Source: Candidatus Eiseniibacteriota bacterium | GTDB taxonomy: Bacteria; Eisenbacteria; RBG-16-71-46 | Assembly: GCA_035712145.1 (NCBI GenBank) | Contig: DASTBI010000096.1 | Coordinates: forward strand, 16,513-80,512 | Direction: 5' to 3' | DNA length: 64,000 bases | In this document: positions 8,217-62,585 of the stretch, one piece after another | Layout of the letters: each line of letters opens with the position of its first letter | Position numbering within the stretch: the stretch's first letter is position 1 | The notes under the pieces: model-generated | The model's database searches: none | Told to the model about the DNA's origin: nothing | Seen by the model: only the letters and a program-made list of their open reading frames with translations | Translations under genes and position numbers: made by a program

Positions 8217-8228
8217 GCGCGTTCCTCT

Positions 8229-8441
8229 CTATGGAACCGGGTCCACGCCGTGCCCGCCGAGCGGATGACAGCGCAGCAGGCGGCGGGCGGCGAGCCACGA
8301 TCCGCGCGCCACTCCGTGGCGAACGATCGCCTCTTCGGCGTAATGGGAGCACGAGGGCCAATACCGGCAAACGGGGCCGAGCCACGCCGAGAGCGATCGG
8401 CGATAGAGACGGATGAGCCCGATCAGCAGCTGGCGGGTCAC
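8229..8441 (-). CDS. yidD: Membrane protein insertion efficiency factor YidD
   Basis: The 70-aa product [31 protein letters not shown] matches the YidD signature. Confidence 0.85.
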
Positions 8442-8821
8442 GAGGTGAGGCTCTCCGCGGTCATCGCCCCGGCCTCGACCAGCAGGCGCTCGATGTCCTC
8501 GACCAGGTCGGCGTGAGCCGCGCGCGGCAAGCTGCGGAAGGCGACGAACATCATGCGCACGCCGAATGGCGCCACGCGGGGCCAGCGCCGGCGCACGATC
8601 TCACGCATGCGCCGCCGCGCGCGGTTCCGTTCCACCGCGCCGCCCACGCCTTTCCGGCTGGCGACGAAGGCCACCTGGGTGGGTTCGCCGGGACGCGCTT
8701 CGAAGACCACGAGGCAGTGCCGGCCACGGGCCGGCCGGCCATGGGCCTTGAGCTGCGTGAACTCGGCCTTCGACCGCAGTCGGGACTCCGAAGGGATCCG
8801 TTCGGCGGACTTCGAGATCAT
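8438..8821 (-). CDS. rnpA: Ribonuclease P protein component RnpA
   Basis: [11 protein letters not shown]...[25 protein letters not shown] is the RnpA basic motif. It overlaps the yidD start by 4 nt. Confidence 0.85.
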
Positions 8822-8944
8822 GTGGAGACCGGACCGCGCGAAGTCGGCTCGGCCGGCGGATACAGCCCAGACCATATCGGGTCTTGATCGAGTGGGCTCT
8901 GCAGGCGGCCAGCCCTCCGAGACGGAGAAGACCGCTCCGGAACC

Positions 8945-47782: not shown

Positions 47783-47881
47783 CGTCGCACCTCACGGGTG
47801 GGTCTCGCGGTCAGGATGGCGGGCTGTCCGCGGGCGCGCAAGTCCCATGAAGCTTGCGACTTGGCGGGAATCGGCCGCGGA

Positions 47882-47897
47882 TATGACGCCGGTCATA
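47882..47897. promoter_or_regulatory. Putative Dnr/NnrR/FNR-type box, TATGAC-N4-GTCATA
   Basis: A perfect-arm palindrome lies 36 bp upstream of the hemerythrin ATG, in the crp-nos divergent intergenic region. Confidence 0.4.
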
Positions 47898-47932
47898 CCG
47901 GGAAAGCGCCGTCGCGACGATCTTCCCGGCGT

Positions 47933-48469
47933 ATGGAGAGCGCACGGTCCAGAGCTCAGAGCCCGTTCGATCGGTTCCGCCGCGATCACCTCCGAGTGCT
48001 CACTCGACTGACCGCGATCGAGGAAGCGACCGGGCGCGGCCGCCCCGTCGACGAGACGCGGCTGCGACGCCACCTCGACGGTCTCGGCCGGCAGTTCGAC
48101 ACGCACATGGCCGCCGAGGAATCGGTCTTCTATCCCGTGCTCGCGCGCACACTGCCGGCGACGGAATCTTCGCTACGCCCGTTGAACGACGAGCACACCG
48201 ACCTGCGCGAGATGCTGGCCGCCCTGCGCGTCACGCTCGGGCGCCCACGAAGCCCTGAGCGCGACGTGCAGATCGGCATCCAGGCACGCGATCTCGTGGA
48301 CCTCCTGCGCGCGCACATCCGCAAGGAGGAAGTGGTCGTCTTCGATGTCTCGGAGCGAGTGCTCCGGCCCGGGGAGCTTCGGGGTCTCCACCGCAGGCTG
48401 AAGTCCTTCCTCCCCGCACGCGCCCGCCTCGCCGAGGCCGGGCGTGAGAAAGGCAAGCACGGGTCATGA
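47933..48469 (+). CDS. Hemerythrin-like (HHE cation-binding) domain protein
   Basis: His and Glu ligand patterns occur at FRRDHLRV, THMAAEESVFYP, NDEHTDLRE and LRAHIRKEE. The stop overlaps the cytochrome c start (ATGA). Confidence 0.7.
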   Translation: MESARSRAQSPFDRFRRDHLRVLTRLTAIEEATGRGRPVDETRLRRHLDGLGRQFDTHMAAEESVFYPVLARTLPATESSLRPLNDEHTDLREMLAALRVTLGRPRSPERDVQIGIQARDLVDLLRAHIRKEEVVVFDVSERVLRPGELRGLHRRLKSFLPARARLAEAGREKGKHGS

Positions 48470-48942
48470 ACGTCCTGGTTCGAGGTCTGCTCCTCGCGGC
48501 CCTCGCAGCCGCGATGGGTTGTGGTGGATCGAAGTCCGCCGACGAGGGGAAGGATGAGGCCCGCGCCTCGACCGGCGGCTCCGGGGCTTCAGCCTCGGCG
48601 TCGAAGTTCGACCAGGGGCCCCGCGCCGGTGAATCGGCTGCGAACGAAGAGCTCGCCGAGCGGGGAGAGAAGCTCTTCCAGGAGAAGGGCTGCTCCGCCT
48701 GCCACGCCTTCGGCAAGCGCAGCGCCGGACCCGATCTCGCCGGCGTGTCGATGCGCCGCACCGCGCGATGGATGGAAAACCAGATCCTTCACCCCGACGT
48801 GATGGTGAAGGAGGACCCGATCTCGCGCGCCATGTTCGGAGAGTTCGCGCTCCAGATGCCGAACCAGGGGCTCACGCCCGAAGAAGCCAAGGCTGTCATC
48901 GAGTACTTCAAGCACCAGGACCAGGAAGCGGACGAGGACTGA
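48466..48942 (+). CDS. Monoheme class I c-type cytochrome, lipoprotein (clade-II nos 'cy-c')
   Basis: The lipobox AAMGCGG, a CSACH heme motif and a downstream Met are present. Confidence 0.8.
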   Translation: MNVLVRGLLLAALAAAMGCGGSKSADEGKDEARASTGGSGASASASKFDQGPRAGESAANEELAERGEKLFQEKGCSACHAFGKRSAGPDLAGVSMRRTARWMENQILHPDVMVKEDPISRAMFGEFALQMPNQGLTPEEAKAVIEYFKHQDQEADED

Positions 48943-48964: not shown

Positions 48965-50866
48965 ATGAAACGCTGGATCGTCACAACTGTGACCGCACTC
49001 GTGCTGGCCGCGGTCGCCCTGTCGCTCGGCTGCGCCGGCTCCGGATCCGCGCGCAAGGGCTCCGCCGCCGAGAAGGTCTACGTGAAGCCGGGTGAGCACG
49101 ACGCGTACTACGCGTTCCTCTCCGGCGGGCATCACGGGAACATCTACGTCTACGGCTTCCCTTCGTCGCGGCACATCACGACCATTCCCGTCTTCACGCC
49201 CGAGCCCGCGGTGGGCTATGGCTACGACGAGGACAGCAAGGCCATGCTGGGCGGACGCACCTGGGGCGACGCGCACCATCCCGGCCTCTCGGAGACCGAC
49301 GGCAACTACGATGGGCGCTGGCTGTTCATCAACGACATGGTCGGGGCACGGATCGCGCGCATCGATCTCAAGGACTTCAAGACCCGCCAGATCTTCGGTC
49401 CGATCCCCAACCTGTCGGCGGCGCACGCCTGTCCCTTCCCCACGCCGAACACCGAATACGTGTTCGCGGCGTCGCGATTCTCCGTGCCGGTTCCGAATCG
49501 CGCCACGCGCATCGAGGACTACGGCAAGGACTTCAACGGCATCATCGCCGGCATCAAGGTGGCGCCTGACGACGGCACCATGTCGCTCGGCTTCGAGATC
49601 CTGACCCCGCCTTTCGACTGGGACCTGGCGGACGCAGGCAAGGGTCCGAGCCACGGCTGGGAGTTCTTCACCTGCTACAACAGCGAGCTGGCCTTCGATT
49701 CGCTGGAGGTGAAGGCGTCGCAGAACGAGATGGACTTCATCGCGGCCGTCGACTGGCGCGCCGCGCAGAAGGCGGTCGACGAGGGCAAGGCCAAGACGAT
49801 CGGCGGCGCCCCGGTGCTGCATCCGCAAGAAGTGAGGGGCATCATCTATCTGATCCCGGTGCCGAAGAGCCCGCACGGCGTGGACGTGAACCCGACCGGG
49901 GAGTACATCTGCGCGAGCGGCAAGCTGCAGGCCGAGGTCAGCGTCTTCAGCTTCGCGAAGTTCCAGGCCGCCATCCAGGCCGAGAAGTTCGACGGCGACC
50001 GCGGCGGCATCCCGGTGCTCAAGTACGAGGACGTGCTCGAGGCCAAGGTCCCGGTGGGCCTGGGCCCGCTGCACACGCAGTTCGACGACAAGGGCTTCGC
50101 CTACACTTCGCTGTTCCTCGACTCCCAGATCGCCAAGTGGAAGGTCGGCCCGCCGTGGAACGTCGACGACAAGATCGACGTCTACTACTCGATCGGGCAC
50201 CTCATGGCGTCGGAAGGCGACACCAAGAACCCGACCGGTGAATACGTCATCGCGCTCGACAAGCTCTCGAAGAGCCGCTACCTCTCGGTCGGACCCACTC
50301 ATCCCGAGGCGGCCCAGCTCATCGACATCCGCGGTCCGAAGATGGAGCTCCTGTACGACTTCCCGACCTATCTCGAGCCCCACTACGCGCAGATGATCCG
50401 CGCCGAGAAGCTCAAGCCCATCACCGTCTACCCGATCGCCGAGAACAAGAACAAGGACGCCATCAAGACCGCCGAGGAAGCTCGGATCGTGCGCAAGGGG
50501 AACCGGGTCGACGTCTACGCTCTGGCGGTGCGGACGCACTTCACGCCCGACAAGGTCAAGGTCAACCAGGGGGACGACGTCTACTTCCACGTCACCAACC
50601 TGGAGCAGGACGACGATATCGCCCACGGGTTCGCGGTGCTGTGGTCCAACGGCAACATGCAGATCGAGCCGGGTGAGACCAAGACCATGCACTGGAAGGC
50701 CGAGCAGGTGGGGATCACGCCGTTCTACTGCTCGAACTTCTGCAGCGCGCTGCATCAGGAGATGCAGGGCCTGATCGAGGTCCAGCCGCGCGGCGCGAAG
50801 GTGGCGGCGGTCCAGCGACCGGATCCGCGCCAGGTGAGCGAGATCGCGGCGCTCCTCCAGCGATAA
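48965..50866 (+). CDS. nosZ: Nitrous-oxide reductase NosZ, clade II (Sec lipoprotein signal)
   Basis: The CuA motif is FYCSNFCSALHQEM. The N-terminal beta-propeller has conserved His (DAHHPG, SAAHACPF). The lipobox LSLGCAG and an AAAGGAGG RBS are present. Confidence 0.9.
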   Translation: MKRWIVTTVTALVLAAVALSLGCAGSGSARKGSAAEKVYVKPGEHDAYYAFLSGGHHGNIYVYGFPSSRHITTIPVFTPEPAVGYGYDEDSKAMLGGRTWGDAHHPGLSETDGNYDGRWLFINDMVGARIARIDLKDFKTRQIFGPIPNLSAAHACPFPTPNTEYVFAASRFSVPVPNRATRIEDYGKDFNGIIAGIKVAPDDGTMSLGFEILTPPFDWDLADAGKGPSHGWEFFTCYNSELAFDSLEVKASQNEMDFIAAVDWRAAQKAVDEGKAKTIGGAPVLHPQEVRGIIYLIPVPKSPHGVDVNPTGEYICASGKLQAEVSVFSFAKFQAAIQAEKFDGDRGGIPVLKYEDVLEAKVPVGLGPLHTQFDDKGFAYTSLFLDSQIAKWKVGPPWNVDDKIDVYYSIGHLMASEGDTKNPTGEYVIALDKLSKSRYLSVGPTHPEAAQLIDIRGPKMELLYDFPTYLEPHYAQMIRAEKLKPITVYPIAENKNKDAIKTAEEARIVRKGNRVDVYALAVRTHFTPDKVKVNQGDDVYFHVTNLEQDDDIAHGFAVLWSNGNMQIEPGETKTMHWKAEQVGITPFYCSNFCSALHQEMQGLIEVQPRGAKVAAVQRPDPRQVSEIAALLQR

Positions 50867-50875
50867 CGGACGGCA

Positions 50876-51502
50876 ATGAACAACTTCTGGAGTGAGCCTT
50901 TCCAGGCCGGGCACCGGCGGCTGATCTTCATCGTGGCCGTGGTGCTGATCCCGGTGTTCTTCATCCCGGTGCTGCCGATCTGGACGATGAGGCTGTGGGC
51001 CCCTCAGTATCCTGAGGGGCTCCGCCTCGTCATCTTCGCGAACACGATCAAGGGCGATCTCGACAAGATCAACATCCTGAACCACTACGTCGGAATGCAC
51101 GCGATCACCGCGAACGACTTCAAGGAGTTCGGCTACATGCCGCTGGCGCTCACGTTGTTCGGGGTCATGGCGCTGATGGCGGCGATCGCGAACCGCCGTG
51201 ACGTCGCGCTGATCGGATGGGCGGCGTTCACGCTCTTCGCGGTCGTGATGTTCAAGGACTACGCCAACTGGCTCTATCACTACGGACACGACCTGGATCC
51301 CCGGGCCGCCATCAAGCTCGATACCTTCACGCCGCCGCTGATCGGCTACAAGAAGATGGCGAACTTCCGCGTTTGGAGCCTGCCCGATCTGGGAGGGATC
51401 CTGCTCGGGATCGCCTGGCTGATGGGTCCGTTGGTCGCGCTGCTGGACGTGCTCGGGCGCCGGAAGCGCCTAGCCGCGGGCCGCTCCACGGTGGCTGCCT
51501 GA
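50876..51502 (+). CDS. NosB-like polytopic membrane protein of clade-II nos clusters
   Basis: The 208-aa product has 4 to 5 TM helices and sits immediately after nosZ, before nosD. This matches the described nosB position. Confidence 0.55.
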   Translation: MNNFWSEPFQAGHRRLIFIVAVVLIPVFFIPVLPIWTMRLWAPQYPEGLRLVIFANTIKGDLDKINILNHYVGMHAITANDFKEFGYMPLALTLFGVMALMAAIANRRDVALIGWAAFTLFAVVMFKDYANWLYHYGHDLDPRAAIKLDTFTPPLIGYKKMANFRVWSLPDLGGILLGIAWLMGPLVALLDVLGRRKRLAAGRSTVAA

Positions 51503-51515
51503 GGCGGGCGAAGTC

Positions 51516-52886
51516 ATGAGCGCGGCACGTCGGGTGCTGCTGGCCCTTGGGTTGACGCCGCTCCTCGCGGCCGGCGCCGCGCAAGCGCGCGTGCTCTTGC
51601 CGCCGGAAGGCTCGATCGCGGTCGCGCTCCAGCAGGCGCGCCCGGGAGACACCCTGGTCGTGCCCAAAGGCGTCCATCGCGAGCGCATCCGCATCCAGGT
51701 CCCGCTCACGCTCCGCGGCGAGCCCGGAGCGGTGCTGGATGGCGGAAGCGAGGGCTCGGTGCTCACGGTCGAGGCCTCGGGCGCGACGATCGAGGATCTC
51801 GAGATTCGAGGCAGCGGCAACCGTGTCATCACGGTGGACAGCGGCGTGCGCGTGCTCGGAGCGTCCGGGGTCCGGCTCCGCCGCTTGATCCTCACCCAAG
51901 TGCTCTACGGCATCTCGGCCGAGCGCTCGGACCAGATCTCGATCGAGGATTGCCGGCTCGCGGGCCGCGTGCCCCCGCGTGAGGAGCGCGGCGACGGCAA
52001 CGGGCTCCACCTCTGGTACTGCCGCGACGCCGTGCTTCGCGGCAACGAGCTGTCCCGGTTCCTCGACGGCATCTACCTGTCGTTCGTGGATCGCGCGCAG
52101 GTCGAGAACAATCGGCTGAGCGACCACGGGCGGTACGGGCTCCACACGATGTACTGCCACAACACACGGCTCGTCGACAACGATTTCACTCGCAATGTCG
52201 CCGGCATCGCCATCATGTTCTCCAACGGTCTTCACGTGGAGCGCAATCGCATGGTCCGGAACCGGGGGCCTCGCACGTACGGCCTGCTGCTACGCGACTG
52301 CAACGGCGGCCGCTTCGAGGCCAACCATCTCGTCGACAACACGGTCGCGATCTTCATGGACAACTCGAATCGCAATCATGTGACCGGCAACCGGCTCTCG
52401 GACAACGGCTGGGGCGTGATCCTGTTCGCGTCGTGCGCCGGCAACGAATTCGCCGGCAACGACTTCATCGACAACGACTATCCGCTGGCGCTCGACATGC
52501 GGCGCACCGACAACCGGTTCGACGACGGGCGGCGAGGCAACTACTGGAGCGGGAGCGCTCCGTACGATCTCGACGCCGACGGCGTCAGCGATGCGCCTCA
52601 CTCGCCGGTGAGCGCATTCGCGTTCGTGTCCAAGCAATATCCTGATCTTTCGATCCTGGCTCGCAGCCCCGCGGTCGTCGCCTTGTCGGTCGCCGAGCGG
52701 GTGTTTCCGTCGCTCCAGCCGAGCGAGGCGGTGGACCGTTTTCCCAGCGTGCGCCCCACGGTGGCGAGCCCATCCGAAGCCGGAGAGCGCCGCGGCGCCC
52801 GCCGCAGCTGGACCGCGGCCTTGGCCTTCTCTCTGTTGCTCGGGATGGGGCTCGCCGGCTTCACCCGGCGCCGGGAGGTCCCGTGA
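51516..52886 (+). CDS. nosD: NosD, periplasmic right-handed beta-helix (CASH) copper-cluster assembly protein
   Basis: Repeated beta-helix rungs (NxxxxN / GIxL patterns) are present, such as NRLSDNGWGVILFASCAGNEFAGNDFIDN. A signal peptide is present. Confidence 0.85.
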   Translation: MSAARRVLLALGLTPLLAAGAAQARVLLPPEGSIAVALQQARPGDTLVVPKGVHRERIRIQVPLTLRGEPGAVLDGGSEGSVLTVEASGATIEDLEIRGSGNRVITVDSGVRVLGASGVRLRRLILTQVLYGISAERSDQISIEDCRLAGRVPPREERGDGNGLHLWYCRDAVLRGNELSRFLDGIYLSFVDRAQVENNRLSDHGRYGLHTMYCHNTRLVDNDFTRNVAGIAIMFSNGLHVERNRMVRNRGPRTYGLLLRDCNGGRFEANHLVDNTVAIFMDNSNRNHVTGNRLSDNGWGVILFASCAGNEFAGNDFIDNDYPLALDMRRTDNRFDDGRRGNYWSGSAPYDLDADGVSDAPHSPVSAFAFVSKQYPDLSILARSPAVVALSVAERVFPSLQPSEAVDRFPSVRPTVASPSEAGERRGARRSWTAALAFSLLLGMGLAGFTRRREVP

Positions 52887-53656
52887 TCCACGCCGCGGGT
52901 CTGGTCAAGCGCTACGGCGCGGTGGTCGCGGTCGACCATCTGTCATTCGACGTGAACGCGGGGGAGACGTTCGCGCTCGTCGGACCCAATGGCGCCGGGA
53001 AGACCACGACGCTCCGCCTGCTCCTCGGTCTCTCGCTTCCCGACCAGGGGACGATCACCATCGGCGCCCGGCGTCTTCCGCCCAACCACCCCGAGGCTCG
53101 CGCCGCGCTCGGTTACGTGCCGCAGAAGGTCGAGTTCCCCCGCGGCCGCACGGTGACCGAGGTGCTGCGGTTCTTCGCCCGTCTGCGCGGACTCGATGCG
53201 CGCGCGGTGGACCGAGCTCTCGAGCGGGTGGGCCTTTCCGAATTCGCGTCGCGCCGGGCGACCGAGCTCTCCGGTGGATACACGCAGCGGCTCTCGCTCG
53301 GCCAGGCGCTGCTGGCCGATCCTTCCCTGCTCGTTCTCGACGAGCCCACGGCCAGCCTCGATCCGGAAGCGACCTGGGAGTTTCGATCGCTGGTCGAGCA
53401 GCTGAGAGCCGAGGGCAAGACGATCCTCCTGTGCTCCCACCTGCTGTCCGAAGTGGAGCGCGTCGCCGACCGCGTGCTGATCCTGGTGGAAGGCCGTGAG
53501 GCCGCGCTCGAGCGGATGGACGAGCTGCGCACGCGCCAGGAAGCCGCGGCGCGGCGCGCCCTCGAAGGCCACGCCCGCAACGACGGAGCGATGTCCCTCC
53601 CCACGCTCGAGGAGGTCTTCCTCTCGGTGGTGCGCAAGGAGAGGGCCGATGCGTGA
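52883..53656 (+). CDS. nosF: NosF ABC transporter ATP-binding protein
   Basis: Walker A GPNGAGKTTT, signature LSGGYTQRLSLGQAL, and Walker B LLVLDEP are present. The GTG start overlaps the nosD stop. Confidence 0.85.
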   Translation: MIHAAGLVKRYGAVVAVDHLSFDVNAGETFALVGPNGAGKTTTLRLLLGLSLPDQGTITIGARRLPPNHPEARAALGYVPQKVEFPRGRTVTEVLRFFARLRGLDARAVDRALERVGLSEFASRRATELSGGYTQRLSLGQALLADPSLLVLDEPTASLDPEATWEFRSLVEQLRAEGKTILLCSHLLSEVERVADRVLILVEGREAALERMDELRTRQEAAARRALEGHARNDGAMSLPTLEEVFLSVVRKERADA

Positions 53657-54059
53657 CGTGGCGCGTGTCGCATGGAACGCGCTCATGCTCGCGGCGCTGG
53701 CTTCGTGCGCCGCTCGCGGGCCCAAGCCGATCGCGGTCGGCGCCGAATGCGCCGCTTGCGGCATGTCGATCGGCGATCTTCGCTTCGCCTGCGAGAGACA
53801 AGCCGGCGGCTGGTCCCAGTACGACTCGATCGAGTGCCTGCTCGACGACAAGAAGCCGGGCCCGATCTGGCTCGCCGACTACGACACGCAGACGCTCGCC
53901 CCGGCCGAGTCCTTGTGGGTGGTGAAGGGTGACTTTCCCTCACCGATGGGCGGCGGCCTCGCCGCTTTCCGCTCCCGCGCGGCCGCCGATCGAGTCGCCT
54001 CGGAGACGGGCGGCCGGGTGTCGCGACTCCCCGATGTGAAGCGGGAACCGGCGCCATGA
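53649..54059 (+). CDS. nosL: NosL copper-binding lipoprotein
   Basis: The lipobox LASCAA is present, and ECAACGMSI matches the NosL CxxCGM motif. Confidence 0.7.
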   Translation: MRDVARVAWNALMLAALASCAARGPKPIAVGAECAACGMSIGDLRFACERQAGGWSQYDSIECLLDDKKPGPIWLADYDTQTLAPAESLWVVKGDFPSPMGGGLAAFRSRAAADRVASETGGRVSRLPDVKREPAP

Positions 54060-54463
54060 AGCGCTATCTCACGCTGTTCGCCATCAGCCTGGCGATCGCG
54101 GTGGCGCTGGCGATCGTGGCCAGGAGGCCGCGGAGCCGTCCGGCCGCGCCCGTGGCGCTGGCGGTTCCCGAGGCGGCGCTCGAGCTGGCGATCGAGCACG
54201 GCGCCATGGTGCCGAGCCGCGCGGCGGTGCCCAAGGAGCACCGGGTGCGGCTCGCGGTCGAGAACCGCGACGACGAGACGGCGACGCTCTCGCTCGCCGG
54301 CTACGAGGACCGGCTCGCGCCCCGCGCGATCGCGCCGGGTGCGCGCTGGGACACCACGTTCGTCGCCGACCGGCCGGGCGAAGGCTTCGCCTGGCTCGTG
54401 GACGGCAAGCTCGCCGGCCAGTTGACGGTTTCGGGGTCTCACCTGGTGGAAGGACACCGGTAA
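54056..54463 (+). CDS. Uncharacterised 135-aa membrane-anchored periplasmic protein inside the nos operon
   Basis: It has an N-terminal TM anchor and ATGA overlaps with both nosL (upstream) and nosY (downstream). I recognised no known motif. Confidence 0.45.
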   Translation: MKRYLTLFAISLAIAVALAIVARRPRSRPAAPVALAVPEAALELAIEHGAMVPSRAAVPKEHRVRLAVENRDDETATLSLAGYEDRLAPRAIAPGARWDTTFVADRPGEGFAWLVDGKLAGQLTVSGSHLVEGHR

Positions 54464-55299
54464 TGCGTGGCGTCGACATGCGCCGCGTGCGGGTGATCGC
54501 AGGCGACGAGTTCCGGCAGGCGCTCGAGAGCCGCTGGCTGTTCGGCTTCACGGCCGTGCTCGCGGGCCTCGTGCTCGGGCTCTCCTTCTTCGGCCTGGCG
54601 CAGAGCCGCGAAGTCGGCTTCCAGGGCTTCGCGCGGGTCACGCTGAGCCTGATGAACCTGGTGCTCTTCATCGTCCCGCTCACCGGTCTCGTGCTCGGCG
54701 TCACCAGCACCTCGAGTGCTCACGGCGCGCTGTCGCTGCTGCTCGCGCAGCCGGTGAGCCGGACCGAGGTGCTGCTCGGCAAGTTCCTCGGTCTCGCGGC
54801 CGCGCTCACGGTGGCGCAGGCGGTGGGATTCGGCGCCGGCGGTCTCGTGGTCGCCTTCTACGCCGGATCCGAGCAATCGCTCGGATTCCTCGTGCTCACC
54901 GGCCTGTCCATGGCGCTCGGCTGGCTGACGGTTTCCACGGCGCTCTTCATCGCCGTGCTCTGGCCGGACCGGCTCAAGGCCATGTCCGCCGCACTGTTGC
55001 TATGGCTCCTCATGGTGGTGGCGTACGACCTCGTCGTGCTCGGGGCCACGACGCTGCTCCAGGGCGTGCCGCTCCAGAGCGTGCTGTTTCCGGCTCTGCT
55101 GCTCAATCCCGTCGACCTGGCCCGGGTGCTCACCATGCTGGCGATCGGATCGGGAGCCCTGTTCGGGCCGACCTCGGCGGTTCTCATGAAGAGCTTCGGC
55201 AGCACGGGCGGCATTGCGCTCGGGCTGCTGGTGCTCACGCTCGAGAGCGTGATCCCGCTCGTGATCGCGGCTCAGGTGTTCCGAAGAAGGGATGGGTAG
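54463..55299 (+). CDS. nosY: NosY ABC-2 type permease
   Basis: It has six TM segments and follows nosF/nosL. Its stop overlaps the nnrS start. Confidence 0.75.
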   Translation: MRGVDMRRVRVIAGDEFRQALESRWLFGFTAVLAGLVLGLSFFGLAQSREVGFQGFARVTLSLMNLVLFIVPLTGLVLGVTSTSSAHGALSLLLAQPVSRTEVLLGKFLGLAAALTVAQAVGFGAGGLVVAFYAGSEQSLGFLVLTGLSMALGWLTVSTALFIAVLWPDRLKAMSAALLLWLLMVVAYDLVVLGATTLLQGVPLQSVLFPALLLNPVDLARVLTMLAIGSGALFGPTSAVLMKSFGSTGGIALGLLVLTLESVIPLVIAAQVFRRRDG

Positions 55300-56449
55300 A
55301 GCGCCTCAGCCGTACCAGGTCCTCTTTCCGATCGGAGTCGTGTTCGCTCTGATCGGCCTCGGCGCATGGCCCGCGCACGTCTTCGGGCTCTTGCCTTATC
55401 CGGGCGCGCTGCACCGGAGCCTGATGATCCAGGGCTTCGAGACCAGCTTCATCCTCGGCTTCCTCCTCACCGCGATGCCGGCCTTCACGCACGGGCCCCG
55501 CTGCCATCCGCTCGAGCTGGCATGGGGCGTGTTCTCGATGGTGGGCTTCGGCGTCGCCGCCTTCTTCGCCGACGAGACCGCGGCGCAAGAGTTCTTCCTC
55601 TTCGCTCTCACGCTGCCACTCTTCGCCGGTGGCCGGCGCGTCCTCGGGAATCCGCAGAAGCCGCCGGAAGAGTTCGCCTTCGTCGCGTTCGGACTGGCGC
55701 TCGGGCTCCTGGGCGGCGCGCTGCGGCTCGCCGAGTCGCTGGGCGTCGTGTTTTCGCTGCCGGCGCGCTTGCCGGAGCGCCTGCTCTCGCTCGGCATGGT
55801 CCTGTCTCTGGTGGTGGGCGTGGGAAGCCTCCTCGTCCCCACCTTTGCGGGAATGCGCGATCCACTGGTGATTCCCGGTGTGGCGAAGGCCCACGAGCGC
55901 GCCGGGCGCCGTGCGTTGTACGCGGTGATGATGGCGGTGCTCGCGCTGGCCTTCGTCCTGGAGAGCGCCCATCGGCCGACCCTCGGCATGGCCATGCGGG
56001 CCACGGCAGTCACCGTGATGGTGACCTGGGTGTGGAAGCTCTACCGGCTGCCGCGACGGGATGCCGCCGGATTCGTGCTTTGGGGCGCGGGGTGGTTCCT
56101 GCCGCTGGGGCTCCTGGGCGCGACGCTCGATCCGCTGCACGCCGTCGCCCTGCTCCACTTCACCTACATGGGAGGCTTCGCGCTGCTCACGATCGGGATC
56201 GGGACACGCGTCATCGTCTCGCACGGAGGACACGCGCTCGAGCTCGAGCGCCGCGTGCTCGATGTGCGGTGGCTGAGTCTGTTCCTCATCGCGCTGGCGC
56301 TTCGCGTCATCGCCGATTTCGCCACGGCGCACGTGGCCAGGGCATGGGCCGCGAGCGCGGTGCTGCTGATCGCCGCCTGCGGATGGTGGGCCTGGAGAGT
56401 CCTCTCGCTGCGATCGCAGCGACGCGAGGTCGGGCCGAAGACGGTCTAG
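55292..56449 (+). CDS. nnrS: NnrS family heme-copper membrane protein (NO-stress associated)
   Basis: The ~385-aa product has 12 TM segments with conserved His (HRSLMIQGFETSFILGFL, HGP..H) and sits in the denitrification context. Confidence 0.65.
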   Translation: MGRAPQPYQVLFPIGVVFALIGLGAWPAHVFGLLPYPGALHRSLMIQGFETSFILGFLLTAMPAFTHGPRCHPLELAWGVFSMVGFGVAAFFADETAAQEFFLFALTLPLFAGGRRVLGNPQKPPEEFAFVAFGLALGLLGGALRLAESLGVVFSLPARLPERLLSLGMVLSLVVGVGSLLVPTFAGMRDPLVIPGVAKAHERAGRRALYAVMMAVLALAFVLESAHRPTLGMAMRATAVTVMVTWVWKLYRLPRRDAAGFVLWGAGWFLPLGLLGATLDPLHAVALLHFTYMGGFALLTIGIGTRVIVSHGGHALELERRVLDVRWLSLFLIALALRVIADFATAHVARAWAASAVLLIAACGWWAWRVLSLRSQRREVGPKTV

Positions 56450-59064
56450 CGGATCTTCACCACCCTCGAGCTTCTGCTCTCGCCGCCGCTCACGGCCCGC
56501 ACGAAGTAGATCCCCGGGCTCGCGTCGCGACCTTCGCTCGAGCGGCCTTCCCAGGTGAGCACGCGCGTGCCGGCCTCGGCCCGGCCTTCGAAGACGCGGG
56601 CCACGTGCCGCCCCTGCAGGTCGAGCACGTCGACCACCGCGTGCCCCGCGTTCGACATCTCGAGCACGAAGCTCACCCGGCCGGAAGCGGGGTTTGGCCA
56701 CGGCGAGCGGAGCCCCAGCCGAGCCGGAAGCTCACCGGGGAATGGCGCAGCGCCGAGCGCCTGCTGGGTCGCGTCGTAGAGCGTGAGATCGTCGATGGCC
56801 GCTTCCACGACCGAATACGCGCTCTTCTCGGAGGCCACGAAGCGCACCTTGACCTGCGCGGTGGGCGCCACGTGATCGGCGATGCGGACCGCGCCTTCCT
56901 GCCAGTGGGCGTGCATGCCGGTGATGCGCTTCGCCAGCGTCCAGCTGCCGCCGTTGTTGCCGCTCATCAGCACGTCGAGGTAGTCGCCGGCATCGTTGGT
57001 GTTGGTGAAGAACCAGAACCAGAAGCCGATCGTGGGCATGGCCATGCCGGTCGCGTCCAACGCCGGGCTGGTCAGCGTCGTGAGGCCGTCGAGATCGTGA
57101 CCTTCGATGTCGGTGGACAGCGTGCCCTGGCCGGTCACGAAGCAGCGCGTGCCATTGGGCGTGCGATCGTTCTCCGGCTGCACCGGGCCGGGATACAGGC
57201 CCTCCGCCTCGCGATGTCCCTCGTGCGCCAGCGGGACCCCGGGACGCGTGAACGCGCCGGTCACGGGAGGCGACGTCATCGACACGGGCCCCTGATCCGC
57301 GACCTGGGTGCCGAGCGGATCGACCCACTGCCATTGCCCCGAGATGTTGTCGTTCGCGTCGTCTCCCGGCGCTCCCACCGTCCAGCCGGCCGACGATTCG
57401 ATCGGATTCCAGAGCGCGACGGGCGGCAGCGTGAATGACAGATCCGTCGGTCCCGGGCCGATCGTGCGCACGAAGCGGAGCGGGATGTACCCGGGAGCGG
57501 TGACGTTGACGCCATACGGGCCGACCGGGACGTCGCTCAGCTCGAAGTGCCCGCTGGCATCGGTGTGCGTGTGCAGGTTCGTGTCGTCGAGCGAGATCCC
57601 CGCCTCCTCCAGCGGGCCTTGTCCCCCCTGCACCATGCCGGTGAAGTCGGCCCTGGCGAGCGGCGCCAGCGTCACGGTCACGGTCTCGCGCACGGCGATG
57701 ACGGCGTTGCGCGTGATCTGCGCGTTCGCGTACCCGAAGCGCTTGGCGGTGATGGTGTGCGAGCCCGGGTCGAGCGCGAACACCGCGACTCCAAAGGCGG
57801 TGGTGGTGAGCGACTCCTGCGCGGCGCCGCGATAGAGCGTTGCGCCCGCGATCGGCTGCCCGTTGCTCGAGTCCACCACTTTGACCCGCAGCAGGCCGTA
57901 GTCGCGGCGCGGGCGATACACCCAGAGTCCGGTCTGCATGTCGCTCGCGATCACGGTGCCGGAAGGAAAGTACGGGCACACCGCCCATACGCCGTCGTAG
58001 TTGCCCGAGGGACCGGCGTAGGAATCCGCGAAGCCGAACTCCGCCGGATGACCGGGATCGCTGGCGTCGAGCACGCGGATCCCCTCGGTGTAGTTCGACA
58101 CGTAGATCTCGTCGTCCTTCACGTGGACGTTGTGGACGATGGCCGCGGGATTGGAGGTGTAGCGGTTGAAGAGAACCGGGGCCGAGAGGTTGGAGATGTC
58201 GAAGATCTTGAGCGGCTCGCCGTTCTTCTCGTCGGTGATGTAGAGCCAGTTGCCGGTCTTGTCGGGCCAGGAGTTGTGGGTGAAGCCGCCGGGATAGTGC
58301 CAGGCCGCGATCTGGACGGGTGCTCCGGGATTCGTGAAGTCGAAGATGCGGTGGATCCCGTAGTAGATCGACGAGGCGTAGAGGCGGTTGCCGATCGGCA
58401 CGCTGTCGTGCACGTACACCGAATCGTCGTTGCTCGGACCGATCGGTGTGCTGGGCCAGGTCGCGAGCGGCGCGGGCGCTTCGGGACTGGCGAGCGAGAG
58501 GATCCGCATGCCCGAAGAGGGATAGGCGCCCAGCCCGGCGTTGTAGCGGGTGCCGTTGCAGACCAGGATCGCGCGCGTGGTATCCACCGACACGGTGTGG
58601 GACCGGGCGAAGCCGGTCGCATACGTCGACGCGAGCACCGGATGCTCGGGATCGGTCATGCGGATGATCTGGATGCCCTCGCCGGCCCCGAAGCCCTCGG
58701 TGACCACGTACATCCAGCTCCGGTACTGCTTCATCTCCCGCCATTTCGAGGCCGGACCGGGGATGAAGCCCACCTGGTAAGCGGCCGCTGGGTCGGTCAC
58801 GTTGTAGAAAGCGGTTCCCGTACCGGTGCCGATCACGGCGTATTCCCTGCCGTCGTGGTGTATGTAGGACCAGCACGACGAGTAGTTCCAGTTCCCGGGA
58901 GACGGGTTGGCCGGAGGGTAGTTGTCGAAGTGCGCCTTGAGCTCGAAGTTACGCAGGGTCAAGGCTCGGCCCGGGACCGGAGCGAGCAAGGCGGCCAGGG
59001 CCGCGGCGCAGGTCAGGATACGGAGATGGGCGGCGCCTGGTGGTGACTTGATCCCAGGGGTCAT
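56446..59064 (-). CDS. Large secreted cell-surface protein with carboxypeptidase-regulatory-like domains and an FlgD-Ig/T9SS-type C-terminal sorting domain
   Basis: It has a signal peptide and CarbopepD_reg-like segments (LLRVKVVDSSNGQPIAGATLY; GHFELSDVPVGPYGVNVTAPGY). The C-terminus is WPNPASGRVSFVLE...GIYFVRAVSGG...VVKIR. Confidence 0.7.
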   Translation of the reverse strand: MTPGIKSPPGAAHLRILTCAAALAALLAPVPGRALTLRNFELKAHFDNYPPANPSPGNWNYSSCWSYIHHDGREYAVIGTGTGTAFYNVTDPAAAYQVGFIPGPASKWREMKQYRSWMYVVTEGFGAGEGIQIIRMTDPEHPVLASTYATGFARSHTVSVDTTRAILVCNGTRYNAGLGAYPSSGMRILSLASPEAPAPLATWPSTPIGPSNDDSVYVHDSVPIGNRLYASSIYYGIHRIFDFTNPGAPVQIAAWHYPGGFTHNSWPDKTGNWLYITDEKNGEPLKIFDISNLSAPVLFNRYTSNPAAIVHNVHVKDDEIYVSNYTEGIRVLDASDPGHPAEFGFADSYAGPSGNYDGVWAVCPYFPSGTVIASDMQTGLWVYRPRRDYGLLRVKVVDSSNGQPIAGATLYRGAAQESLTTTAFGVAVFALDPGSHTITAKRFGYANAQITRNAVIAVRETVTVTLAPLARADFTGMVQGGQGPLEEAGISLDDTNLHTHTDASGHFELSDVPVGPYGVNVTAPGYIPLRFVRTIGPGPTDLSFTLPPVALWNPIESSAGWTVGAPGDDANDNISGQWQWVDPLGTQVADQGPVSMTSPPVTGAFTRPGVPLAHEGHREAEGLYPGPVQPENDRTPNGTRCFVTGQGTLSTDIEGHDLDGLTTLTSPALDATGMAMPTIGFWFWFFTNTNDAGDYLDVLMSGNNGGSWTLAKRITGMHAHWQEGAVRIADHVAPTAQVKVRFVASEKSAYSVVEAAIDDLTLYDATQQALGAAPFPGELPARLGLRSPWPNPASGRVSFVLEMSNAGHAVVDVLDLQGRHVARVFEGRAEAGTRVLTWEGRSSEGRDASPGIYFVRAVSGGESRSSRVVKIR

Positions 59065-59149: not shown

Positions 59150-60097
59150 TTGAAGCGTTCGATCCTGCTGTGCGTCAGCGTCTTGGCTCTGGTCACCGGC
59201 TGCGGGGAAGAGACCTTCGAGGCACCACCGGACTGCACCGGCCGTTTTCTCGTGGCCTACGCGCGGATGCCGGCCCCCGATCAGGGTGACCTCTACCTCT
59301 TCGACCACGACGGCCTGGGGTTCCATCTGCTGCCCGGCATCAACAGCACCTCGCAGCAGGAGCTGAACCCCACGCTGAGCCGCAACGTGCGGTTCATCGC
59401 CTTCGAGCGCGTGCTGACGGTCTCGGACCACGACATCCTGGTCTACGACCGATGCCAGGCATCACTCGTGAACCCGCCCAACCTCAATACCACCGGCATC
59501 GAGCGCGACCCGGCATTCAGCGGCGACGGCAACAAGCTGGCGTTCGTGCGCGACACGCTCTCGCGGCGTGAAATTCGCCTCTACGACGGGGTCACCGACC
59601 GTCTGGTGCCGCTGCCCGGCATCGAAGGGAGCGGCAGCTACCTGGACTCGAGCCCCGTCATCAACCAGAACGCGACCCTGATCGTCTTTTCGCGGTTCCA
59701 GGCCGACGATGACGTGCTCGTCTACGACGCGGTGAACGACAGCCTGATCGACCTTCCGGATCTGGCATCGGCGGGGAGCGACGTGGATCCATCGATCACG
59801 CCGGACGGCCGCTACCTCGTGTTCGCCTCGGACCGCTCGAGCCCGGGGGACTACGATCTCTACCTCTACGATCTCCAGCTGCGCAGCTTCCTCACGCTGC
59901 CCGCCGCCGCCAACACGGCCATGACCGAGCGACACCCGAGCGTCAACTACAACACGGACCGCATCGTCTTCGAGTCGAACCGCACCGGGACCCAGGGAAG
60001 CATGGACATCTACCTGCTCACCCGCAGCTCGGGGAACGTCACTTCTTCAGGTTCATCGCCCACCACCGACGCCCAGCCATGGATCGCATGGCAATAG
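59150..60097 (+). CDS. TolB-like PD40 beta-propeller repeat lipoprotein
   Basis: The lipobox LVTGCG is present. PD40 repeats follow the pattern DxxPxxSxDGxxLxFxSxR (PAFSGDGNKLAFVRD; PSITPDGRYLVFASDR). A TTG start follows a GGAGGG RBS. Confidence 0.65.
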   Translation: MKRSILLCVSVLALVTGCGEETFEAPPDCTGRFLVAYARMPAPDQGDLYLFDHDGLGFHLLPGINSTSQQELNPTLSRNVRFIAFERVLTVSDHDILVYDRCQASLVNPPNLNTTGIERDPAFSGDGNKLAFVRDTLSRREIRLYDGVTDRLVPLPGIEGSGSYLDSSPVINQNATLIVFSRFQADDDVLVYDAVNDSLIDLPDLASAGSDVDPSITPDGRYLVFASDRSSPGDYDLYLYDLQLRSFLTLPAAANTAMTERHPSVNYNTDRIVFESNRTGTQGSMDIYLLTRSSGNVTSSGSSPTTDAQPWIAWQ

Positions 60098-60104
60098 GCC
60101 GCGC

Positions 60105-61100
60105 GTGATCCGAAGCTTCGGCCGCGCGCTCGGAATCGTCATCGCAGTCATCTTCGCGCCAGGCTGTGCCTCGAATTCCGATCCCAACCAGCCGGGCGAC
60201 GGCGACCGGCCACCGATTCGGATCGCCTTCCTCAGCGAGCGACCGCCGAGCCCCGCGTTCGCGAGCGACATCTACCTCTACGACGCGTCGACCGGAGGCC
60301 CCGCGTTTTCACCACCCAACCTGAATACCGCCAGCGTCGAGGGGCCGTGCGCGATCTCGGGCGATGGCCGCCATCTGGCCTTCTGGACCAACCGCCAGCC
60401 CACGGGCTCGCTCGCCGTCATGCTCCTCTACGACATCCAGACCGGCGCCATCACGCTGCCTCACTGGGCCACCACGCTCCAGCAGGTCAACAACCCCGCG
60501 CTCACCCGTGATGGCCGCTATCTCGCGTTCCAGTACCAGGTCGGCGGATCCGATCTGTTCATCGGGATGGAGGACCTGGTCGGGGACTCGCTGCTCCCGC
60601 TGCCCAGCCTGAACCAGCCCGGAGTCCTCAGCTTCGATCCATCGCTGAGCGCCGACGGCAAGCTCATGGCTTTCGCGTCCGTTCGATCCGGCGGCGGCGG
60701 CGGCGGCTTCGATCTCTTCCTCTACTCGGTGCCGGGAGACAGCCTGATCCCGCTGCCCGGGATCAATTCGCCGGCCAGCGATCTCGCCCCGTCCCTGAGC
60801 GGAGACGGTCGCTACCTCGCGTTTCAGTCGGGCCGCGTGGGGCAGAATGGCGGCGTGCTCGATGTGTTCCTCTACGACCGGCAAACGCAGAGCCTGGTGT
60901 CGCTTCCGGGCGCCAACACGGCGCTCGCCGACTATCTCCCTTCGCTCTCGCCCGACGGCCGTTACCTGGTGTACACCACGGACTCCTTTGGCGGGCGCGA
61001 CATCCGCGTCTACGACATCGGCGCCAGGCGGCTCCTGAACCTTCCGAAACTCAATGATCCCTACTTCTACGATTACTTTCCGTCGGTCGCCAATCCCTGA
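60105..61100 (+). CDS. TolB-like PD40 beta-propeller repeat lipoprotein (tandem paralog)
   Basis: The lipobox FAPGCAS is present. Repeats include PALTRDGRYLAFQ, PSLSADGKLMAFAS, PSLSGDGRYLAFQS and PSLSPDGRYLVYTTD. Confidence 0.7.
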   Translation: MIRSFGRALGIVIAVIFAPGCASNSDPNQPGDGDRPPIRIAFLSERPPSPAFASDIYLYDASTGGPAFSPPNLNTASVEGPCAISGDGRHLAFWTNRQPTGSLAVMLLYDIQTGAITLPHWATTLQQVNNPALTRDGRYLAFQYQVGGSDLFIGMEDLVGDSLLPLPSLNQPGVLSFDPSLSADGKLMAFASVRSGGGGGGFDLFLYSVPGDSLIPLPGINSPASDLAPSLSGDGRYLAFQSGRVGQNGGVLDVFLYDRQTQSLVSLPGANTALADYLPSLSPDGRYLVYTTDSFGGRDIRVYDIGARRLLNLPKLNDPYFYDYFPSVANP

Positions 61101-61112
61101 CCGGAGTCGGGC

Positions 61113-62585
61113 ATGACGACTCGTCGCGATTTCCTGCGCCGTATCTCGCTGGCCACCGCCGCCGCCATGGCGCCGACCGGTCTCGAGGCGCTCTGCGCCC
61201 GGATGGCCTCGGGGAAGAGCATCCAGTCTTCGGGCTTCGGCCGGCTCGTCGCCGATCCTTCGGGATTGCTCGATCTGCCCGAAGGCTTCCGTTACCGCTC
61301 CTTCTCGAGCGCGCGCCTCGGCACCACTTCGGACATGCAGTTCAGTCAGACGCTCTCGAACCGCGAGCCGGTTCCGGCGCTCCATGACGGCATGGCGGTC
61401 TTTACCGGCCGCGACGGAATGATGGTGCTCGTGCGCAATCACGAGATGGATCCCGGCCAGATCCCCGCCGTGGCGCCTGGCCGCACGCCGCGCTGGGACC
61501 GCCTCGGCACGGGCGGCACGACGACCCTGTGGGTGAACGCGAACGGCGAGCTGGTGCGGAGCTTCGCGAGCCTCGCCGGCACCTTCCGGAATTGCGCCGG
61601 AGGCGCCACGCCGTGGGGCTCGTGGCTCACGGCGGAGGAGTGCGTCTACACGCCGGGCCCTGTGGATCCCCACGTGCACCATCAGCGCCCCGACGTGGCC
61701 GAGGCTCACGGGTACATCTTCGAAGTCGATTCGCGCGCCGAGGACCTGGTGCCGCCGAGGCCCATTCGCGGCATGGGCCGCTTCTATCACGAGGCGCTGG
61801 TGGTCGACCCGGTGACGGGATTCGTGTACCTCACCGAGGACCGCACCGACGGCCTCTTCTACCGCTATCGGCCGCACCTGATCACGTCGCGGCGCAAGAA
61901 ACCGGGCGAGCTGACCACCTTCGATCTCCACGAAGGCGGCGTGCTCGAGGCGCTGCGGCTCCCGGACCATCCCAAAGCACGGACGCAGAACCACGAGGAC
62001 GGTCCGCCGCGGTTCACTCCCGGAAAGTGGATGCGCATCGACTGGGTCGCCATTCCCGATCCGGAGCCCAAGGTCGACATGGAGCGAGATCCCAACGACC
62101 GCGAGCGCGATCCGACGAAGCGGGTGGGGCGCACCGCCTCGGGCTCCACGCGCGCGCAGGGCACGGCGCTCGGCGCCGCGCAGTTCTCGCGCTGCGAAGG
62201 CATCACCCGCATGGGACGGCATCTCTACTTCTGCGCCACCAACGGGGGCAGCGCCGGCGCGGGTCAGGTGTGGAAGCTCGACCTCGGCGGCAACCGCCTG
62301 TCGCTCGTGCTCGAGCCCAACGATCGCAATCTCCTCGACGGTCCCGACAATCTCGCGGTCGCGCCAAACGGCGATCTGCTGGCGTGCGAGGACGGCACCG
62401 GCGAGAACTTCGTGGTCGGCATCACGCCGCGCGGCACCTGCTATCACTTCGCGCGGAACGCCTACAATCGCAGCGAATTCGCCGGCGCCTGCTTCTCGGC
62501 CGACGGGCGCACGCTGTTCCTGAACATCCAGGACCCGGGTGTCACCTTCGCCATCCAGGGTCCCTGGCAGGGCCGCAAGGCCTGA
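61113..62585 (+). CDS. Tat-exported PhoX-family (DUF839) phosphatase
   Basis: It has a twin-arginine signal TTRRDFLRRISLATAAA, and beta-propeller PhoX motifs (NCAGGATPWGSWLTAEE; GLFYRYRP). Confidence 0.75.
   Translation: MTTRRDFLRRISLATAAAMAPTGLEALCARMASGKSIQSSGFGRLVADPSGLLDLPEGFRYRSFSSARLGTTSDMQFSQTLSNREPVPALHDGMAVFTGRDGMMVLVRNHEMDPGQIPAVAPGRTPRWDRLGTGGTTTLWVNANGELVRSFASLAGTFRNCAGGATPWGSWLTAEECVYTPGPVDPHVHHQRPDVAEAHGYIFEVDSRAEDLVPPRPIRGMGRFYHEALVVDPVTGFVYLTEDRTDGLFYRYRPHLITSRRKKPGELTTFDLHEGGVLEALRLPDHPKARTQNHEDGPPRFTPGKWMRIDWVAIPDPEPKVDMERDPNDRERDPTKRVGRTASGSTRAQGTALGAAQFSRCEGITRMGRHLYFCATNGGSAGAGQVWKLDLGGNRLSLVLEPNDRNLLDGPDNLAVAPNGDLLACEDGTGENFVVGITPRGTCYHFARNAYNRSEFAGACFSADGRTLFLNIQDPGVTFAIQGPWQGRKA

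Follow-up and report, generated by a model that had tools for sequence, protein, structure and literature searches.

What does a small, unassigned gene do when it sits among the maturation genes of a nitrous oxide (N2O) reductase? The question is raised by a 64,000-nucleotide stretch of DNA (hereafter the window) from Candidatus Eiseniibacteriota bacterium (assembly GCA_035712145.1, contig DASTBI010000096.1, positions 16,513 to 80,512 of the forward strand), in whose nos cluster an open reading frame (ORF), here given the working name ORFX, lies between nosL and nosY. To our knowledge, N2O reductase is the only biological sink of N2O, and the Eisenbacteria are uncultured. Maturation of the enzyme, that is the insertion of its 12 copper ions, decides whether soils emit N2O or N2. 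The current model of this process rests on clade I proteobacterial systems made of NosL and NosDFY, and clade II organisms dominate many soils. We describe ORFX as a strictly conserved member of such a clade II cluster, predicted to have a cupredoxin fold with a retired copper site, and propose, giving the idea an even chance of being right, that it is an accessory docking and hand-over module on the NosL/NosDFY copper route. As such it would bear on the copper supply of clade II N2O reductases.

The gene and its two junctions are as follows:

54056 to 54463, + strand: ORFX, encoding a predicted nos-cluster-specific cupredoxin-like protein of 135 residues (start codon ATG at 54056, stop codon TAA at 54461-54463)
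54056 to 54059, + strand: ATGA, in which the nosL stop codon overlaps the ORFX start codon, as read in the sequence
54461 to 54465, + strand: TAATG, in which the ORFX stop codon (54461-54463) overlaps the nosY start codon (ATG, 54463-54465) by 1 nt

These coordinates and the Pfam identities of the neighbouring genes agree with the original prediction of a 135-residue frame between nosL and nosY. The predicted ATGA at the 5′ end was likewise found, the N-terminus had been quoted correctly as MKRYLTLFAISLAIAVALAIV, and the reported lack of a Cys/Met copper motif was borne out, the protein containing 0 Cys and one internal Met. Two details required correction. The 3′ junction had been given as ATGA at 54460-54463 and is instead the 1-nt overlap listed above, while the C-terminus had been quoted as ending in ...TVSG, although SHLVEGHR follows G127, which means that the most conserved motif of the family had been omitted.

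A search of 5.8 billion proteins returned 132 homologues of ORFX, nearly all of 135-141 residues and with identities down to approximately 40%; the few that carried organism names were assigned to Candidatus Eisenbacteria. Ten columns (G82, Y83, P107, G108, F111, W113, G127, H129, G133 and H134) were invariant in an alignment of 117 sequences, and these make up the motifs LAGYEDR, FVADRPGEDFAW and the C-terminal GSHLVEGHR. The GC content at third codon positions (GC3) was 0.926 in the ORFX frame and 0.53-0.76 in the two other frames, the neighbouring genes showing values of 0.83-0.92. Since this signature is combined with homologues bearing invariant columns and with a conserved position, we conclude that ORFX is a real coding gene and not a chance ORF of a GC-rich genome. 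The notion of a spurious or non-functional frame draws on the long shadow ORFs that both strands of this GC-rich region carry. However, the minus-strand shadow ORFs were devoid of an ORFX-type signature when frames were compared by GC3, the high value is confined to the ORFX frame, contrary to what had been named as a sign of non-coding sequence, and length, motifs and position are conserved in more than 120 loci; we give this notion practically no weight.

In order to examine the genomic setting, one genome per species was scanned, which yielded 54 loci, almost all from Eisenbacteria metagenome-assembled genomes (MAGs). In all 54, ORFX was followed directly by nosY and preceded by nosF or nosL within the same cluster. 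Its start codon overlapped the stop codon of the upstream gene by 4 nt at 44 of 49 loci, and its stop codon overlapped the nosY start by 4 or 1 nt at 40 of 51. As these loci had been selected via ORFX itself, we made an unbiased selection of 80 metagenome loci chosen solely by similarity to the NosY of the window (66-92% identity). Usable upstream sequence was available for 72 of these, and in each of the 72 ORFX immediately preceded nosY (complete in 61, cut by the contig end in 11); none of the informative loci lacked it. The claim that ORFX is co-expressed with the nos maturation genes is thus strengthened by a synteny that did not vary in either sample, and a lack of conservation at this position is refuted. 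The gene orders show ORFX to be a strictly conserved member of the nos cluster, and its overlapping junctions mark it as translationally coupled with nosY.

Two minor observations concern these loci. The same cluster was also met in MAGs labelled Verrucomicrobiia, Binatia, Saccharimonadaceae, Methylomirabilota, Omnitrophota, Hyphomicrobiales, Bacteroidota and Limnocylindria (loci L005, L008, L010, L013, L020, L022, L038 and L046), where the odd labels are likely to reflect mis-binned contigs. Matches to ORFX, nosZ and nosD were fragmented in two long-read MAG contigs (L053, around 8200-8920; L054, around 8180-8300), and this looks like the result of frameshift assembly errors rather than pseudogenes.

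A structural model of ORFX was built with AlphaFold2 using the 117-sequence alignment. Its mean predicted local distance difference test score (pLDDT) was 79, with most of the sandwich at 86-91, and it divides the protein into four segments:

54059 to 54121, + strand: N-terminal hydrophobic helix, residues 2-22 (helical in the model and hydrophobic in all homologues)
54122 to 54169, + strand: Arg/Pro/Ala-rich linker, residues 23-38 (pLDDT 56-64, variable in alignments)
54170 to 54433, + strand: predicted cupredoxin-like beta-sandwich, residues 39-126, with LAGYEDR (80-86) and FVADRPGEGFAW (102-113), and with the canonical copper ligands absent
54434 to 54460, + strand: C-terminal tail GSHLVEGHR, residues 127-135, predicted to be disordered (pLDDT 43), with G127, H129, G133 and H134 invariant

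The helix is predicted to be a signal anchor or an uncleaved signal. A Tat signal was considered for it, as the consensus "xRRYL" resembles the twin-arginine motif; the twin positions read KR in the window and KR, RR, RA, RP, RS or GR in homologues, and this assignment was rejected because the second Arg is not conserved.

The modelled sandwich consists of eight strands and, by both the model and Foldseek comparison, corresponds to a cupredoxin-like Greek-key fold of about 90 residues. The top matches in the PDB were FtrB of Brucella (8vuk, template modelling (TM) score 0.81) and then the Cupredoxin_1 protein of B. anthracis in Cu- or Zn-bound form (4hcf/4hcg), followed by the cupredoxin domain of EfeO, the copper chaperone CupA and the CuA domains of NosZ and ba3 oxidase, all with a Foldseek probability of 1.00. 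Sequence comparison pointed in the same direction. ORFX matched Pfam Cupredoxin_1 (PF13473) below threshold (E=1.3e-4, 22.4 bits against a cut-off of 27), precomputed PF13473 matches were present on some homologues, and an NCBIfam scan of ORFX gave no match. An exhaustive profile search of 1.84 billion representatives recovered approximately 70 full-length family representatives and reached true Cupredoxin_1 proteins at E-values of about 1e-10 to 1e-7. When family profiles were compared with PDB sequences, the cupredoxin matches (nitrosocyanin, E=0.0025; NosZ CuA, E=0.035) were too weak for residue-level transfer from FtrB.

Alignment with small membrane-anchored cupredoxins that bear copper ligands showed which features have been kept and which lost. 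The ORFX family has retained the helix at the N-terminus as well as two turns, G-Y and (D)RPG. Set against true Cupredoxin_1 proteins, it shows no conservation in the column of the first His ligand, has Trp or Leu in place of the Cys ligand, has lost a four-residue stretch with the His and Met ligands, and has gained nine residues, the His tail, beyond the last strand. The His...Cys...His...Met ligand set of type 1 and CuA cupredoxins was accordingly not found in ORFX, and Cys is absent from the window protein and from most homologues. Because the first His is unconserved, the Cys replaced and the His/Met loop deleted, ORFX is best described, on the basis of alignment and model, as a cupredoxin fold with a retired copper site, derived from true Cupredoxin_1 copper proteins. 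A new metal site at G-Y-E-D was also considered and rejected, as the G-Y pair occurs in true Cupredoxin_1 as well and only E84/D85 are specific to the family.

The closest known relatives are therefore the Cupredoxin_1/EfeO-type proteins, including FtrB and 4hcf/4hcg, which have the same small eight-strand sandwich (TM scores 0.77-0.81) and share with ORFX a membrane helix at the N-terminus and two motifs, G-Y and (D)-x-P/A-G; the sequence relationship is weak but specific. ORFX differs from them by the deleted Cys-His-Met loop, by the added tail and by its context, which is nosD-nosF-(nosL)-ORFX-nosY in all loci instead of the ftrACD or efeUB context of FtrB and EfeO, with no Ftr1/EfeU-type permease. 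FtrB, like ORFX, does without the classical His/His/Cys set, and has a D118/H121 Cu2+ site and an E84/E86/E93 Glu cluster (PMC11966278); it was compared with ORFX at the fold level. The same fold is found in the CuA domains of NosZ and cytochrome oxidase subunit II, which also resemble ORFX locally in sequence around FVAD(R/K)PG, whereas ORFX contains none of the CuA ligands: a variable hydrophobic residue stands at the position of the first His, and there is no Cys-x3-Cys-x3-His-x2-Met loop. CupA of Streptococcus pneumoniae (PDB 4f2e, TM score 0.71) is a cupredoxin-fold protein with one N-terminal membrane helix that acts as a copper chaperone for a membrane transporter. Its Cu(I) ligands are Cys and Met, and the transporter that it serves is the efflux pump CopA; neither ligand type is found in ORFX, which is linked to a biosynthetic ATP-binding cassette (ABC) system instead.

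Three further identities were tried and rejected. ORFX itself is not NosL, since it has no PF05573 match and none of the NosL Cys/Met ligands, and is a polypeptide in its own right that has a membrane helix; the neighbouring gene at 53649-54059 encodes the NosL of this cluster. PCuAC (DUF461, PF04314; H(M)x10Mx21HxM) was dismissed on the ground that no Pfam match was obtained at E<=0.1 and that ORFX has a single internal Met. NosP and NosQ are recently recognised small proteins encoded in nos clusters and needed for NosZ maturation at low pH; they occur only with clade I nosZ, have their genes between nosL and nosR, carry no signal peptides and bind directly to NosZ (bioRxiv 10.64898/2025.12.16.694761). 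ORFX, in contrast, belongs to clade II, is predicted to be membrane-tethered and is encoded between nosF or nosL and nosY, which sets it apart from the published description.

A link between ORFX and NosL emerged from remote matches, among which were proteins of 238-261 residues (about 250) composed of a lipobox, a NosL domain (PF05573) and an ORFX-like C-terminal domain. In these fusions the NosL Cys-x-x-Cys-x-Met and Met ligands are intact, and the C-terminal domain carries the motifs G-Y-E, A-D-[RK]-P-G-x-x-F and G-[SA]-H-x-x-[ED]-E. Comparison of the ORFX family with the fused domains by hhalign gave a probability of 99.6% (E=9.4e-24 over 97 columns). The invariant core common to stand-alone and fused forms consists of D-x-P-G-x-x-F and G-[SAGPV]-H-x-x-[ED], the bracketed position being predominantly Ser or Ala; G-Y is only near-universal, H129 is universal, and the second His (H134) is not conserved in fused forms. 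On every readable contig the fusion was encoded between nosF and nosY with overlapping gene boundaries, and a divergent stand-alone form was found between nosF and a nosY-like permease. ORFX and the NosL-fused cupredoxin-like domain are hence related by profile homology, by motifs and by the nosF-nosY position in a clade II cluster, and NosL and ORFX belong to the same operon and probably to the same maturation step, the ORFX domain forming the C-terminal half of a long "NosL" in other clade II clusters. The clusters that bear the fusions are of a different clade II type, with Rieske, cytochrome b and cytochrome c genes, nosZ, genes for a membrane protein of approximately 213 residues and a protein of approximately 135 residues, nosD, nosF, the fusion and nosY. 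How widely the fusions are distributed among taxa is poorly defined because few were found and one of them was named: a search with the fused-domain alignment returned 4 proteins and one with the full-length fusions 12, including the one that carries the NCBI name "NosL [Calditrichaceae bacterium]". An AlphaFold2 model of one fusion (pLDDT 85, predicted TM score 0.73) contained the same sandwich (TM score 0.86 to 4hcf). Judged from these profiles and gene orders, the ORFX domain recurs at a fixed position in clade II nosDF(L)Y modules, as a free protein with a helix of its own or fused to NosL.

The Calditrichota-type clusters showed some additional features. A second NosL fusion, of 257 residues, is encoded after nosY (L057, 11595-12368; also in L058); its C-terminal domain is weakly related to the ORFX family (E=4e-4) and keeps an "FCSALH" Cys/His motif like that of a real copper site. 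Clusters of this type (L055, L057 and L065, 12.1-13.9 kb) also contain a thioredoxin-like gene, one or two short NosL paralogues and a TonB-dependent receptor.

Clusters without nosL provided a second comparison. The gene immediately preceding ORFX was nosF, again with a 4-nt overlap, at 19 of the 50 genome loci (L012, L013, L015, L017, L020, L023, L025, L027, L035-L038, L043, L044, L046, L048, L050, L051 and L053), and nosF also preceded ORFX immediately at 17 of the 42 metagenome loci with at least 900 nt of upstream sequence (these 17 lying among L066-L145). No match to a NosL profile was obtained within the 8-kb flanks of those 19 genome loci or, for the 17 metagenome loci, in the sequence upstream of nosY. 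The presence of nosL changes at least seven times on a rough neighbour-joining tree of ORFX, which is a short protein so that the tree is indicative only. Comparison of the ORFX sequences from nosL-less clusters revealed no gain of Cys, Met or His, with the exception of a subgroup (L036, L044, L046, L048, L050 and L051, all nosL-less) in which G-Y-E-H replaces G-Y-E-D and LLLDLPGEDFAW replaces FVADRPGEDFAW. The extra His of this subgroup might be relevant if the loop takes part in metal binding.

How could a cupredoxin fold that has lost its copper site serve N2O reductase maturation? In the published clade I model, Cu(I) is handed over from NosL to NosD on the NosDFY complex. We propose that the ORFX domain would act as a docking and hand-over module on the Cu(I) route from NosL via NosD to NosZ. 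Because the fusions are lipoproteins, the domain is probably periplasmic and would lie at the NosY/NosD surface. The beta-sandwich would provide a protein-protein interface, and the flexible tail, through H129, a following acidic residue and, among the Eisenbacteria, H134, would offer a transient ligand that takes up copper from NosL (or, in clusters that lack nosL, from the periplasm) and then passes it on; ORFX would thus be a putative metal-binding protein. Such a hand-over by a His-bearing tail is plausible because an external His of a partner protein has been suggested to mobilise Cu(I) out of NosL's resting state (PMC8457098) and because FtrB, a cupredoxin without classical ligands, binds Cu2+ via an Asp/His pair (PMC11966278). 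The original prediction had favoured a structural partner of the NosDFY complex rather than a chaperone; this was not established, and the cupredoxin fold, the NosL fusions and the His tail point to a chaperone step.

Several observations weigh against this proposal. The universally conserved potential ligands amount to one His and acidic residues, which would be unusual for Cu(I), and the G-Y motif is probably structural rather than a new ligand because it also occurs in true Cupredoxin_1 proteins. In the model of the fusion, the tail (residues 247-256) has a pLDDT below 50 and is not ordered against the NosL domain; therefore nothing suggests that it packs onto the NosL copper site. Approximately 40% of the Eisenbacteria-type clusters keep ORFX with nosL neither adjacent nor within the fetched flanks, so that the link to NosL is not obligatory in cis. 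Lastly, the charges flanking the helix (KR before, RRPRSR after) are ambiguous as to orientation, the topology being deduced from the fusions.

ORFX could instead be a metallochaperone in its own right that binds copper or another metal via H129, E132 and H134 together with E84, D85 and D105, and supplies NosD or NosZ beside NosL or in its place. The persistence of ORFX at the nosL-less loci of the two samples (19/50 and 17/42), with repeated gains or losses of nosL on the rough tree, is in keeping with this idea, as are the invariance of both tail His residues in the 117-sequence alignment and the fold neighbours FtrB, CupA and Cu/Zn-bound Cupredoxin_1, which are non-classical metal binders. 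The NosL of P. denitrificans is moreover reported to be CuZ-specific, which leaves room for a second chaperone (PMC6530538), and a possible variant would have ORFX serve CuA and NosL serve CuZ. The second His is nevertheless not conserved in fused forms, no Cys or Met was gained in the nosL-less variants, and nosL could lie elsewhere in the genomes concerned; we consider a self-sufficient chaperone rather unlikely.

An entirely different role would be that of a structural or regulatory subunit of the NosFY transporter, periplasmic and membrane-tethered, which stabilises NosY or positions NosD and takes no part in metal handling. This would fit the linkage of ORFX, which is tightest and most universal with nosY and not with nosL, the loss of the classical copper site, and a tail disordered as expected for a docking peptide. 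Two features argue instead for involvement in the copper step, namely the repeated covalent fusion to a copper chaperone and an invariant His kept in a tail that could vary elsewhere, and we judge a purely structural role unlikely. A cupredoxin fold encoded in a respiratory gene cluster together with a cytochrome c gene also brings to mind a blue-copper-type electron carrier that donates to NosZ, as pseudoazurin or azurin would. The window ORFX and most of its homologues contain no Cys, however, the Cys-His-Met loop is deleted, and the gene is found among the maturation genes nosDF(L)Y and not beside nosZ or the cytochrome c gene, which makes such a carrier very improbable.

The searchable full-text literature on Eisenbacteria nosZ, cupredoxin-like nos genes, NosL fusions and clade II clusters contained no description of ORFX or its domain, although subscription journals are possibly not covered by it. 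ORFX probably adds a new and undescribed accessory element with a known fold to a maturation system that is itself known. Annotation calls the stand-alone form "hypothetical" and conceals the fused form within genes named "NosL". A component that is strictly conserved with this NosY clade in the unbiased sample, whose domain is fused to NosL in other phyla and yet kept where nosL is absent, would make a concrete and testable addition to the maturation model. A bolder version of the docking and hand-over proposal, which we hold to be possible though doubtful, is that the cupredoxin-like module would be an unrecognised and essential copper-delivery station whose swinging His tail feeds Cu(I) from NosL or the periplasm to NosD or NosZ in many clade II N2O reducers. 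If so, the NosL-NosDFY model derived from clade I systems of Pseudomonas would be incomplete for clade II, and the nosL-less clusters would be explained.

Around ORFX, the nos genes of the window form an array on the + strand with intergenic gaps of -8 to +22 nt:

47798 to 48469, + strand: hemerythrin-domain protein at the head of the cluster (PF01814, E=1.6e-18)
48466 to 48942, + strand: mono-haem cytochrome c (domain match)
48965 to 50866, + strand: nosZ of the Sec-dependent clade II type (TIGR04246, 851 bits)
50876 to 51502, + strand: 208-residue membrane protein directly 3′ of nosZ (no Pfam match)
51516 to 52886, + strand: nosD (TIGR04247, 366 bits)
52883 to 53656, + strand: nosF, ABC ATPase (domain match)
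53649 to 54059, + strand: nosL, 136-residue lipoprotein with an LASC lipobox, CxxCxM and a downstream Met (PF05573, E=4.5e-9)
54056 to 54463, + strand: ORFX
54463 to 55299, + strand: nosY, ABC-2 permease (ABC2_membrane_2, PF12679, E=2.4e-21)
55292 to 56449, + strand: NnrS-family membrane protein at the end of the cluster (domain match)

The 208-residue membrane protein is a candidate nosB product, by virtue of its clade II nosB position alone. The C-terminus of NosD (residues 430-449 approximately, window positions around 52800-52865) consists of a hydrophobic, transmembrane-like segment followed by basic residues, ...WTAALAFSLLLGMGLAGFTRRREVP, and a similar C-terminal hydrophobic stretch is found in the NosD of a Calditrichota-type cluster (L057, 7654-9096). 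The hemerythrin gene, which overlaps the start of the cytochrome c gene by 4 nt and heads the nos cluster in most Eisenbacteria loci, could encode a component that senses O2/NO or has a protective role; as the domain begins only at residue 56 of the GTG-started ORF, the true start codon of the gene is uncertain. A scan for promoters and terminators gave nothing meaningful within the nos cluster. At its other end, the NnrS-family gene overlaps the nosY stop codon by 8 nt and closes the cluster here and at approximately 20 of the 54 genome loci. Converging on this end, a gene on the minus strand (56446-59064) encodes an 872-residue secreted protein with LVIVD, CarboxypepD_reg and FlgD_ig/Por_Secre_tail domains, the latter suggestive of type IX-like sorting, and the region beyond it (59150-61100 and 61113-62585, both + strand) encodes two PD40-repeat proteins and a PhoX alkaline phosphatase.

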